DNA from: a virus
Taxonomy: Duplodnaviria; Caudoviricetes
Length of the DNA: 28,080 nucleotides
Virus record (IMG/VR): IMGVR_UViG_3300027852_000470
Coordinates: 1-28,080 of that record
Strand: one strand, 5' to 3'
In this document: piece after piece, positions 22,772 to 26,585 of the stretch
Position numbering within the stretch: the first letter of the stretch is position 1
Layout: each line of letters starts with the position of its first letter
The notes under the pieces: model-generated
What the model saw: the letters and a program-made list of their open reading frames with translations, nothing else
Databases searched by the model: none
What the model was told of the DNA's origin: nothing
Translations under genes and position numbers: made by a program

Positions 22772-23629
22772 TTATGTTGCAACGTTAGCAGAGTTATCAT
22801 GCAAAATCTGCACAATACCGGAGTTCTGGAGCTTTTTAGACCCCATGAACGTAGAACAACGACAGTATGAATAATCCTGTTCGTCTTCATATCCGATAGC
22901 AGTATCCATGCCTTCTTTATCAATGGCATGTCCAATACTGTTTTTGTGATAGATATAGCATTTCTCGGAAGAGCCCGCACCGCCCGCACCGACCGACCCG
23001 GTCAGACGAGGATGCATGATCCAGTTGACACCCGCCCACCGAAGATATGTCTGCACAGGTCCGCTAAACGGCTGGACCTTGACATAATCAGCAGAAGAGA
23101 ATTCAGGCAACTGCATCAATTCCCCCCAAAAACCGGGAGAAATCAGGCCAAACATATTATCCTGTTCATCAATTGGAACAAGATTGTCACCAAGAATAGT
23201 CAATGCATGCATGACTTCACTCAATGAGGCGGTAGATGCAGCGCCGGTATCATTGGTTGCTGCATCAAGTTGCGCAATGATATCGTCATCAATCTTCCGA
23301 TTGACAACGCCCATTGTCGTTACCTGCATAAGCGCAGTTTGATTGCCTTGGGACGCGAAGATATTAAACCGCGACTTTCGGACAAGATCATGCCACTCAG
23401 CCAACGTCGCCGTGTTCTGAGTGTTACTGTCGGCACGCGCAGGGATAAGCCCGTCCGCACCACGGGTTACAGCCGTTGCGCTTCCACTGTCAGAGACAAG
23501 GAAAACGGCTTCATTCCCGTTTACGTTCGCTTCCGTCACAACCGTATGACGCAAGCGTGATTGCCTATCCTCAAACCCGAGGATAAACTCGTTTCTGTAT
23601 TTTGTTTGATATGCTGATGTGTCAGCCAT
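22772..23629 (-). CDS. major capsid protein
   Basis: 285 aa; F---F--RQSRLR-TV, RKIDDDII, C-terminal GS------GIVQI; strong SD; follows scaffold. Confidence 0.85.
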   Translation of the reverse strand: MADTSAYQTKYRNEFILGFEDRQSRLRHTVVTEANVNGNEAVFLVSDSGSATAVTRGADGLIPARADSNTQNTATLAEWHDLVRKSRFNIFASQGNQTALMQVTTMGVVNRKIDDDIIAQLDAATNDTGAASTASLSEVMHALTILGDNLVPIDEQDNMFGLISPGFWGELMQLPEFSSADYVKVQPFSGPVQTYLRWAGVNWIMHPRLTGSVGAGGAGSSEKCYIYHKNSIGHAIDKEGMDTAIGYEDEQDYSYCRCSTFMGSKKLQNSGIVQILHDNSANVAT

Positions 23630-23661
23630 AACAAATCTCCTTTCAAAAAGATTTCAAATGA

Positions 23662-23779
23662 CCGTTTACTCGGGTTGTCCGCTTTTGTATTGGCGCAGGT
23701 TGTCCATAAGGGGCTGCTAGGATTAGCGGGGCTTTGTACTCGGGTTAGTAAAATGGCGGGGCCTTTCGGGTTGTCCGCC
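23662..23779 (-). promoter_or_regulatory. structured RNA element in the capsid 5' leader
   Basis: Three GGACAACC strands each pairing with a GCCCC strand; GAAA and UUAU tetraloops. Confidence 0.7.
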
Positions 23780-24675
23780 TATGCTCGCGCTCGGGATTTC
23801 TCCTTTGCGCCAAGTAATTTCAAATATTCATCCTGCATCGGCTGGTCTTTGACATAAGCCGCATTGTCTGTTCGCATCACCTTTTCAATTTCGGCAATTC
23901 TGGCATCAAGCGCGGCAGCAGGATCGCCACCACCAGCGCCGACAACTGTTACCAGTGGATTAATATCACGCATCTGGCCAACAAGCCATTTCAAAACTTC
24001 AGGATTGCTGCCTAGAGGCTTTCCGTCTTCACCCCTTGCCGAGAGAATAGCGTTCTTGACCTCTTCGCCGCCACTGTCGAGCCAGGCATTCATATCGTTG
24101 AGATTGCGCCGGAAATCAGCGCCCCAGTGAGTATTCAACTCATCATCGGTATCTTTCTTTGCCTGTGCGTCGGATTCCGCCACTTCGGCAAGAGTGTTTT
24201 CTATATGTTCGTAATACGCTGCCATCGCTTGGTGCACGACAGGGGCAGGAGCATTGATTTCATGCATTTTTGCCGACAGAACATCCATTCCCGCCTGATC
24301 TTCTTCACCGATAACCAAACCATCCGGCAAACCTTCCATATATCCGGCTGCTTCGCTCGGGACGCTTTTCTGTTCCCGCCACGCTGCTTTTTCTTCATCT
24401 GTTCCCTCATCAGGAAAGGCCACGTTGATATCAGCCGATTTGTATTTGGTTTCCAGCTCCATATATGAATCGAGAATTTTACCCGGCGCGTCAAACCGTC
24501 CTGCACGGGCCAGCTTCTTTTCGTCGCCGCCAGAAATTTCCTCGCGCCAGTTTTCAGGCCAGATAACCTTGCTTTCCTGTCCGGGGTTGCTCAGGGTTGT
24601 TTCTGTCTTTGTTTCTGTGGCTTCGGTTTTTACTTCAGTAGCCTCAGTAGCTTCGGTTTGCATTGCTTCAGACAT
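23779..24675 (-). CDS. capsid scaffolding protein
   Basis: Acidic low-complexity N-terminus, WPENWR, SY-ELE, L--HWG-DF, LGSNPE; between portal and capsid. Confidence 0.8.
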   Translation of the reverse strand: MSEAMQTEATEATEVKTEATETKTETTLSNPGQESKVIWPENWREEISGGDEKKLARAGRFDAPGKILDSYMELETKYKSADINVAFPDEGTDEEKAAWREQKSVPSEAAGYMEGLPDGLVIGEEDQAGMDVLSAKMHEINAPAPVVHQAMAAYYEHIENTLAEVAESDAQAKKDTDDELNTHWGADFRRNLNDMNAWLDSGGEEVKNAILSARGEDGKPLGSNPEVLKWLVGQMRDINPLVTVVGAGGGDPAAALDARIAEIEKVMRTDNAAYVKDQPMQDEYLKLLGAKEKSRARA

Positions 24676-24931
24676 TCTTGTTTCCTTTCGGGAAAAGTTT
24701 TTCCATAGGGGTTATTACTAAGTGCACGATTTGATTTCCGACAAACCGCCTGCCCTCGGCGAACGCTGTCAGCCTGTCTCCGTCAACACCGGAAGCAAAG
24801 GACATGCTTTCACGGTCGCTGATTATTTTTACGATATACGACATCGCGGTTATCTGTTGCTCTGGCGTAGCCTCGCCACGCTCCATAGCCCTGATAGCAG
24901 CCACAGCAGGCTTAGACAGCTTGATTTTCAT
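24668..24931 (-). CDS. Bbp19-like head-module protein
   Basis: TAFAEGRRFVG-QI motif immediately after the portal. Confidence 0.7.
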   Translation of the reverse strand: MKIKLSKPAVAAIRAMERGEATPEQQITAMSYIVKIISDRESMSFASGVDGDRLTAFAEGRRFVGNQIVHLVITPMEKLFPKGNKNV

Positions 24932-26585
24932 CCATCACTCCCATTGCAGCAGCCCCTTTGCCGATTTGTTCGGCTACTTCACCGCCACGCTGCAAATCAT
25001 TCATCATCTGCTCTTGCTCTTGCTGTTCTGCCCGGGCCTCGGCAATTTCATTCATTGCGTCATCATTTCGCATCCATCTTGCAGGAGCGCCCGCTCCCTT
25101 GATTGCGTCTCTCAGGGCCTTCCTGCTATCAACCATACTGAACAGATCCGGCTCCATCGCAGCAGCATCGGCCAGCAATGCCTTGGTTTCCATGTAAATC
25201 TGCGTATCCTTGCGGTCTTCATTTTCCTGTAATGGAGAGGTAAACTTGAACTCCACTTCAGCCCCGCGCAACTCTTCAGGCATATCCCTTGGATCACCAA
25301 AGGCTCCCGCCTGCATCATTGTTGCAAACGTCATGTCACACAGGCCGCCATTATATTCCTGCTCCATCGGCTCAAACAACGGTAACGCCTGCCTGATATA
25401 TTCCTGTATTCTCTGGCTGGTTTCATAGGCTGTCATACTGCTACCGGCCTCAGGAAGTGTAAGCTTATCCAGAAAAAACGCTTCCCTAATCATTTCCTTT
25501 GCATCTCGCGCCATTTCAGCGCCGAAAGGCAGTCCGCTGTAATCTTGTGGAATTGGTCTTAACGCCTCGCCTAGACGCTCGTCATATTCAGCATCAACCC
25601 ATGTTACACCACCAGACCACAGTTCCAGATTTGACTTGATCATCTGAGCCTGACCAATCATAGGCGGCTGCGCTGCCTTTTCTCCCGCATCAAGAAGCGT
25701 ATAGGTCATGGACTGAATTAGTCTTGCATCAGGCAGCGCTGTAATAGCAGCAGGCGAATAAGCATATGCCGAGCCAGAAACCGTCTGCCAGCGCGGAATA
25801 ACATACGTCAACAAATGCGACGGCACTTCTTCAATAACATGCCGATTAGTCACATCAACATAATAGGACCGGAACCGAAACTTCTTCTCTCTTGCAGGCA
25901 CATCGCCTGCCCGTTCCGTTGGAACCATGATATGTCGGCAGTCAAGTTCTTGATAAGGGTCTTTTCCGTCTGCTTTTTTCTTCACCTCTGGATGGTTTTT
26001 GTTCCCGAAAGTGTACATCAGGTCAATTGCTGTCGGCTTCCATTTCCTGTGAACCGTATCAACTTCACCCTCGGCATTTTCCGCCCACGCCACATCTCGC
26101 AGATGCCAGTCACGAAACAACAAGGTATTTCCGTCTCTGTTGCGTTCAACCTGAATTACAGCTTGCCCAAAGGCAGCAAAATCCTGATCCCCTTCTTTTG
26201 TCGCACGAACAAATTGAGCCTTCCTGTCGTACATGGCTCGATACTGAACTTCAGACGCCCAGTCGAGCCATTTTCTCGACTCCCCGTTGTCAATGTCCTC
26301 ATGCCCTGTTCTCAGCCCGTAGTGGCCTGTTTCCACTCCGAACCATGTTGTCCCGCGCCTGCGCAACATGGTTGAAAACGAGTTGGACAAATCACGATGA
26401 GCCAAAACCGGATATGAGTTTGACAGATGCGAGGTCAGATCATCGCCGGGCGTAATTTTGTTTGTGAAGTCAGCACGAAGAGGATAAAAATTCTCGGCAA
26501 TCTCCTGCCACAAATTAAGCAATGACGAGCGTTTAGAGAACAGGTTATCCCCCTGCTTGATTAACTCTTCTGCGCGGGCGTCCAT
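24912..26585 (-). CDS. portal (head-tail connector), T7 gp8/BPP-1-like
   Basis: 557 aa; WQEIAE-FYP, PRW---SG--Y--SPA--ALPD, MTAYE---R--E, F-SPL. Confidence 0.9.
   Translation of the reverse strand: MDARAEELIKQGDNLFSKRSSLLNLWQEIAENFYPLRADFTNKITPGDDLTSHLSNSYPVLAHRDLSNSFSTMLRRRGTTWFGVETGHYGLRTGHEDIDNGESRKWLDWASEVQYRAMYDRKAQFVRATKEGDQDFAAFGQAVIQVERNRDGNTLLFRDWHLRDVAWAENAEGEVDTVHRKWKPTAIDLMYTFGNKNHPEVKKKADGKDPYQELDCRHIMVPTERAGDVPAREKKFRFRSYYVDVTNRHVIEEVPSHLLTYVIPRWQTVSGSAYAYSPAAITALPDARLIQSMTYTLLDAGEKAAQPPMIGQAQMIKSNLELWSGGVTWVDAEYDERLGEALRPIPQDYSGLPFGAEMARDAKEMIREAFFLDKLTLPEAGSSMTAYETSQRIQEYIRQALPLFEPMEQEYNGGLCDMTFATMMQAGAFGDPRDMPEELRGAEVEFKFTSPLQENEDRKDTQIYMETKALLADAAAMEPDLFSMVDSRKALRDAIKGAGAPARWMRNDDAMNEIAEARAEQQEQEQMMNDLQRGGEVAEQIGKGAAAMGVMDENQAV

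Follow-up and report, generated by a model that had tools for sequence, protein, structure and literature searches.

The spacer that precedes the major capsid gene of the phage studied here is almost certainly an RNA structure maintained by selection. It is built from three copies of one asymmetric five-by-two internal loop, and comparison of related loci indicates that the leader is a real, uncatalogued family of cis-regulatory RNAs.

Gene context and the loop trio

The window, that is, the whole stretch of 28,080 nucleotides that was analysed, is a phage contig whose minus strand carries a late operon. This operon includes the portal gene (24912-26585, PF12236), an ORF of 87 aa, a scaffold-like gene of 298 aa (23779..24675), the major capsid protein gene of 285 aa (22772..23629; phrog_3437, PF19821) and tail genes. 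An earlier sequence-only reading of the window had labelled the 87-aa ORF, which lies between the portal and the scaffold-like gene, as "Bbp19-like"; this label found no confirmation, the ORF having no family match. The 298-aa product appears scaffold-like from its position between the 87-aa ORF and the capsid gene, its assignment to phrog_3742 and a weak profile match to the annotated scaffolding protein of phage CKB-S2 (E 3e-5); comparison with the annotated scaffold of MEP301 gave E 0.004. Its structure model is all-helical, has no significant match in the PDB and contains no known RNA-binding fold that we could find, and no solved structure matched the capsid protein significantly. The start of the scaffold-like gene overlaps the upstream ORF, and its UAG stop codon overlaps the first base of hairpin 1 of the leader. 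No sigma70-like promoter was found ahead of the leader in the window, where the stretch is intercistronic. An intrinsic terminator-like hairpin (22495-22472, minus strand) follows an 85-aa gene located 3' of the capsid gene and would bound the capsid transcript.

The three ACAAC/CC loops that the sequence-only reading had described are all present on the minus-strand transcript with their helices. Hairpin 1 (23755..23779, minus strand) carries loop module M1 with the long strand first and a GAAA tetraloop, while hairpin 2 (23695..23717, minus strand) carries module M2 with the short strand first. Module M3 encloses hairpin 2 and is formed, on the same strand, by a short strand with its inner helix (23725..23732) and a long strand with its inner helix (23673..23683). 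M3 is in turn closed by an outer helix, P0, with its 5' strand at 23736..23743 (CCG at 23743-23741, UAC at 23738-23736) and its 3' strand at 23662..23669, both on the minus strand. The CGG of the latter (23664-23662) doubles as the base of a further minus-strand hairpin (23623..23664), which is present in the minimum free energy (MFE) and centroid folds and is predicted to mask both the Shine-Dalgarno sequence (23641-23637) and the AUG of the capsid gene (23629-23627).

All three loop-bearing helices are found in the MFE structure of the window leader (ViennaRNA). The stability of this fold is unexceptional, with z 0.13 and -0.88 versus shuffles, and the third helix is lost from the centroid of a longer stretch. 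The string GGACAAC occurs five times in the window versus 2.68 times expected, a count that is unremarkable alone because 9 of 100 shuffles reach five. The clustering of the loops in the spacer, unlike this count, is remarkable: any 8-mer was found three times in a 150-nt spacer in 44 of 5000 dinucleotide shuffles. It is the comparative evidence that is decisive. A descriptor scan of the whole window for such hairpins matched only hairpins 1 and 2, and a covariance model matched a single site, 23622-23749, in the window, which had belonged to the training set of the model.

Conservation and covariation of the leader

Three scans with the capsid protein, the first two of them represented by the best 80 of 556 and the best 80 of 522, gave 192 loci. 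Twelve loci with less than 170 nt upstream were dropped, and the remaining 180 yielded 116 non-redundant leaders. Using a parser that relies on loop-strand sequence and spacing only, with anchors chosen without pairing information, we found the M3-M2 core in 94 of the 116 non-redundant PF19821 capsid leaders and in none of 348 shuffles. When 21 of the 22 leaders missed by the parser were searched with the covariance model, 13 scored E <0.01, and several others show variant loops by eye. Hairpin 1 is optional in the family, being found in 68 of the 94 core-positive leaders, where its flanks covary.

The stems of all three loops covary. Pairing frequencies at individual positions exceed those in cross-locus permutations, which, like our shuffle controls, ignore phylogeny: 0.84 versus 0.42 at outer position 2 of M1 (n 68), 0.92 versus 0.53 at inner position 1 of M2 (n 59) and 0.83 versus 0.43 at inner position 1 of M3 (n 94). 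In a sequence-only alignment of 57 leaders, chosen for a high parser score and short inserts, RNAalifold recovered M2 de novo, but not M3 or P0. When the structure comprising M2, M3 and P0 was specified on this alignment, 79.6% of the cells were paired versus 64.4% in shuffled and at most 48.6% in slid controls, and 16 of its 19 pairs showed two-sided changes. The stems contain 40 G-U versus 17 A-C oppositions, and GNRA sequences cap 16 of 62 and 18 of 84 apical loops; the excess of G-U over A-C and the common GNRA loops suggest that the structure is formed by RNA of the coding (sense) strand. M2 and M3 lie on one long irregular hairpin with near-fixed spacing in most leaders (14-16 and 14-18 nt), and roughly 40 nt separate the end of the element from the capsid AUG. 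The suggestion of the sequence-only reading that selection acts on RNA structure in the spacer is thus borne out by the frequency of the core and the covariation of the stems.

The number of modules varies: the leader of locus L082 has four loops, and those of L264 and L276, which precede distant capsid genes, apparently have two each. In 17 leaders overall, hairpin 2 has an A-rich repeated apical loop of the GCAA type.

The loop module and known RNA motifs

Over 256 copies the module has the consensus G[N Y A M C]C opposite G[C N]C. Of these copies, 254 keep the G-C pair, 251 the C-G pair and 253 the A, counts that are partly circular, as copies were picked by similarity. The five-by-two register is confirmed because the next pair out (long9:short1) covaries; three copies of one such loop, in both strand orders, are thus supported as they had been read from the window. 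Between the first loop base and the last base of the short strand there is weak mutual information (0.121 versus at most 0.082 in permutations), mostly due to A-C.

The closest motif that we considered is the C-loop, which has been seen in rRNA helices, a bacterial mRNA and viroid loop 26. It is described as a motif within a hairpin stem with three loop bases, a longer strand that usually starts with C and Watson-Crick pairs closing both ends, and as a protein-binding, twist-increasing motif (PMC9516175); the usual effect of C-loops is on twist, and not on contacts with other RNA (PMC2441787). In three dimensions, a C-loop has crossed cWS and tWH pairs that make up two triads. The module is likewise an asymmetric loop in a hairpin stem, and the Y of its Y-A-M core is C in 203 of 256 copies. 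The flanks differ: one is C-C in 229 of 256 modules, and the other is A-C in 124 of 256, with standard pairs in only about 68 of 256. The alternative register of the loop is excluded by the long9:short1 covariation. Judging from these sequences, the module resembles a C-loop but fails its closing-pair definition.

The view that the leader belongs to no named RNA family agrees with Rfam 15, whose covariance models, at gathering score, gave no matches in the window and none in eight related loci, the best hit of a permissive scan having E 2.8. Fremin et al. 2023 (PMC10690425) report unnamed candidate RNAs before capsid genes, for example DNAVirus_3698, 5613 and 7287. Compared by listing rather than by alignment, none of these candidates is listed with PF19821, and the loop string is absent from the part of the supplement text that was searched. 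We found no description of the leader RNA in the literature compared, the alignments of PMC10690425 and the supplement of PMC5737381 lying outside this comparison.

Association with the capsid gene

Two reverse pattern scans gave 86 matches, which were not deduplicated and partly overlap the earlier loci. Seventy four matches lie directly before a capsid homolog, four before one set back by an insertion and two before distant PF19821 capsid genes, so that a capsid gene follows in 80 of 86 cases; the others are two contig ends and four unrelated sequences. An inserted radical SAM gene separates the scaffold gene from the leader in 14 loci, where the leader is still found with the capsid gene. 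The tie to the capsid gene that had been proposed for the window therefore holds in the family, both by the reverse matches and despite insertions upstream. The loop spans capsid proteins of 21-31% identity.

The radical SAM gene (PF04055) overlaps the scaffold stop in these loci (L011:1924-2817 and 13 others), and ten of the 14 also carry the A-rich GCAA-type loop on hairpin 2.

Directly upstream of the leader a sigma70-like promoter was predicted in 17 of 87 leaders versus 4 of 870 control windows, and in the promoter-bearing loci hairpin 1 starts near the predicted start site. The term 5' leader, used in the sequence-only reading, thus looks true for these 17 homologs and does not fit the window, where the element is intercistronic. 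Loss of hairpin 1 showed no link with the promoter, which was found in 14 of 62 leaders with the hairpin and 3 of 25 without it.

Scaffold starts of the PF19821 family show no enrichment of the module, descriptor matches near them reaching at most 5 of about 88 loci in a 100-nt bin. An apparent fourth copy within the capsid coding sequence, at +100 to +200 in 21 of 116 loci, was rejected, being explained by conserved peptide codons. In cultured phages with distant capsids, the covariance model gave no capsid-leader match in Hodr, Vibrio 1.254.O, MEP301, CKB-S2, HTVC034P, MT838907 or HMO-2011. In CKB-S2 two module-like hairpins were noted by eye only, and a relaxed descriptor missed both.

Several loci show interruptions or additions near the capsid gene. 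Insertions near its start were found in L043, L070 and L240, with a LAGLIDADG endonuclease (PF00961 in L240) and, by eye, group I intron-like ends; in L217 an HNH endonuclease ORF lies between the leader and the capsid match. The leader is intact upstream of the interruption in L043, L217 and L240. Two features stand out in L040 (L040:1-225 and about 811-1970). An incomplete, diverged leader copy is found 2.3 kb upstream of the genuine leader, and the ORF between the two copies has the look of a peptidase or peptidoglycan-binding protein, its C-terminus resembles the terminal helices of the scaffold, and by these resemblances it possibly encodes a capsid-loaded cargo. In L203, L219 and L249 the capsid ORF directly after the leader has an N-terminal extension of 40-55 aa.

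A candidate switch at the ribosome-binding site

Switch geometry was analysed in 88 leaders, six of the 94 with uncertain starts having been dropped. Two pairing partners are available to the conserved GG that follows M3, one upstream in P0 and the other downstream in the base of the hairpin at the ribosome-binding site. Both helices are more stable in their own leader than in cross-locus combinations (-7.26 versus -5.41 kcal/mol for P0 closing M3 and -10.15 versus -8.15 kcal/mol for the ribosome-site hairpin), and a control pairing showed no such gain. At the base of the ribosome-site hairpin G-U and G-C interchange, and its register in the spacer covaries. Pairing of CGG with the AUG, although predicted in the window, was rejected as a family trait, as the AUG register does not covary.

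Overlap between these helices was found in 65 of 88 leaders, versus 35-45 when the upstream strands were shuffled and 43-55 when they were swapped. Locking P0 lowers the predicted cost of opening the ribosome site from 13.1 to 7.6 kcal/mol in the window and by a median of 2.4 kcal/mol over the 88 leaders, versus 0.5-1.4 with shuffled upstream strands; the coupling energy is above the shuffles with p 2e-4 without phylogenetic correction. In nine of the 88 leaders a locked P0 makes the site harder to open, in the window the upper Shine-Dalgarno hairpin still forms with P0 locked, and the distal part of P0 is 63% paired. These folding calculations lend moderate support to a partial ON switch operated by the locking of P0, and we regard a switch of this geometry as somewhat more probable than its absence. 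The sequence-only reading had attributed switch potential to alternative pairings of a UUUACU linker; that potential survives only in candidates missed at the time, since P0 and the ribosome-site hairpin are, with moderate support from modelling, the better ones.

The layout, in which the closing helix of a sensor hairpin overlaps a hairpin at the ribosome-binding site, is that of translational ON riboswitches and of protein-responsive leaders such as those of ribosomal proteins, and differs from them in having three repeated small loops instead of one pocket.

Proposed mechanism and alternatives

We tentatively propose, from the folding models and the position of the element, that the conserved capsid leader is a protein-responsive switch in which free scaffold binds the loops and raises capsid synthesis, so that, as also suggested in the sequence-only reading, a bound protein would control the scaffold:capsid ratio. 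The default state would be the form with the site-hiding hairpin, P0 and the base of this hairpin being predicted to compete for one strand. A dimeric or oligomeric ligand may bind M2 and M3, stabilise P0 and thereby loosen the ribosome-binding site. The weakest step is the identity of the ligand, which would be unassembled scaffold, spare scaffold calling for more coat.

HMO-2011, a cultured phage, is relevant here. Its scaffold leader (L285:23563-23525) contains two nested four-by-two G[CUAC]/[CC]C loops, with 2 nt between their end and the Shine-Dalgarno sequence. These loops are among 36 matches of a loose descriptor in 40 kb on both strands, and the coat leader has a looser variant of the loop. 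With loops abutting the scaffold's own Shine-Dalgarno sequence, the same binding would repress scaffold. Free scaffold fits best, because such a ligand would block scaffold translation in HMO-2011 and open capsid translation here. No homology was detected between the scaffold and coat proteins of HMO-2011 and their counterparts in the window, which is awkward for a phage protein as the ligand. Two results given above also count against scaffold as the ligand, the scaffold model having no known RNA-binding fold and the PF19821 family showing no excess of the loop at scaffold starts. A phage RNA switch extending over podophage groups with undetectably related head proteins, in which scaffold is sensed via the repeated loop with capsid turned ON and scaffold OFF, is possible but doubtful.

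Scaffold:coat balance in tailed phages is known mainly from autoregulation by the scaffold of P22, and translational autoregulation of P22 gene 8 was reportedly described by Wyckoff and Casjens in 1985; we know of no defined RNA structure associated with it. The P22 scaffold represses its own gene, whereas the element described here precedes the capsid gene and is predicted to activate it. A control site of the P22 type, at the start of the scaffold gene itself, finds no support in the PF19821 family and is present, by position, in HMO-2011. Both systems would involve post-transcriptional control among the head genes of a podophage; in P22 the scaffold N-terminus has been implicated in such control (bioRxiv 10.1101/2022.12.13.520362). 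The starts of P22 genes 8 and 5 have almost no spacer and lack the loop. P22, invoked as a precedent in the sequence-only reading, thus holds for the logic of the regulation and not for the RNA.

Unassembled major capsid protein could instead control its own translation, by blocking 30S entry or by positive feedback via P0. The capsid gene is the only one with which the element is linked in the PF19821 family, the loop persists over the diverged capsid proteins described above, and such coats commonly have the HK97-type fold even without sequence similarity. We nevertheless consider this unlikely: the geometry of P0 points to activation by a bound ligand, so that coat levels would not be balanced, and the loop also precedes the scaffold gene of HMO-2011.

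A conserved host factor, such as a ribosomal protein or an RNA chaperone, recruited by the loops to enhance or stabilise head-gene messages would explain the same loop in phages with undetectably related scaffold and coat, and the protein binding of C-loops (PMC9516175) is in line with it. Prophages of varied bacteria carry the loop, among them those of culturable Mesorhizobium and Methylobacterium strains. Searched with the full model only, however, each of five host genomes gave one match, which fits the known prophage leader, and no further copy. CsrA/RsmA sites, which have an invariant GGA exposed in a hairpin loop, were rejected: no more than about 164 of 256 long strands contain GGA, the GG of which lies in a helix. 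On balance a host factor is quite improbable.

Alternatively, the loops may bind no ligand and be architectural, through a C-loop-like twist or tertiary packing, so as to set a fixed translation level, protect the message or mark it for processing. The near-fixed spacing of the modules, the start of hairpin 1 near the predicted start site in promoter-bearing loci and the usual role of C-loops in twist (PMC2441787) are consistent with this. Against it, the unpaired bases are nearly invariant in three copies across different helical settings (for the A, in the partly circular count given above), and one copy is on a dispensable hairpin; repeated recognition is the better fit to both. Such conservation of sequence is unusual for RNase III sites, which argues against a processing site. 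The chance that the loops are purely architectural therefore seems small.

It is very improbable that the leader is a riboswitch sensing a small molecule, an ion or pH through repeated binding pockets: translational ON riboswitches likewise have a sensor stem that overlaps an expression hairpin, and the loop is closed by A-C and C-C oppositions, but there is no Rfam match, and the element accompanies head genes only and has no metabolic genes around it.

Hardly credible is an alternation of UUUACU (23747..23752, minus strand) between two AGUA-containing repeats, since this linker, whose local and long-range pairings appear in the MFE or centroid of the window phage only, is not conserved in the 88 leaders, with own versus cross-locus energies of -1.97 versus -2.07 (local) and -2.85 versus -2.69 kcal/mol (distal). 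The underlying 10-mer repeat, present as reported at 23746-23737 and 23676-23667 of the window, is not a family trait (a repeat of at least 9 nt in 2 of 88 leaders) and is a by-product of the quasi-symmetric P0 helix.

Implications

The element is a marker for capsid genes in a large phage family that is mostly uncultured, and it offers a compact testable target with a defined loop in three copies, a predicted switch strand and compensatory variants in about 100 natural leaders. Activation by a protein, if it occurs, would make it an unusual kind of ON switch, with an assembly intermediate as the driver. If scaffold is indeed what is sensed, the leader would provide RNA-level feedback on head stoichiometry in podophage groups whose head proteins are undetectably related.
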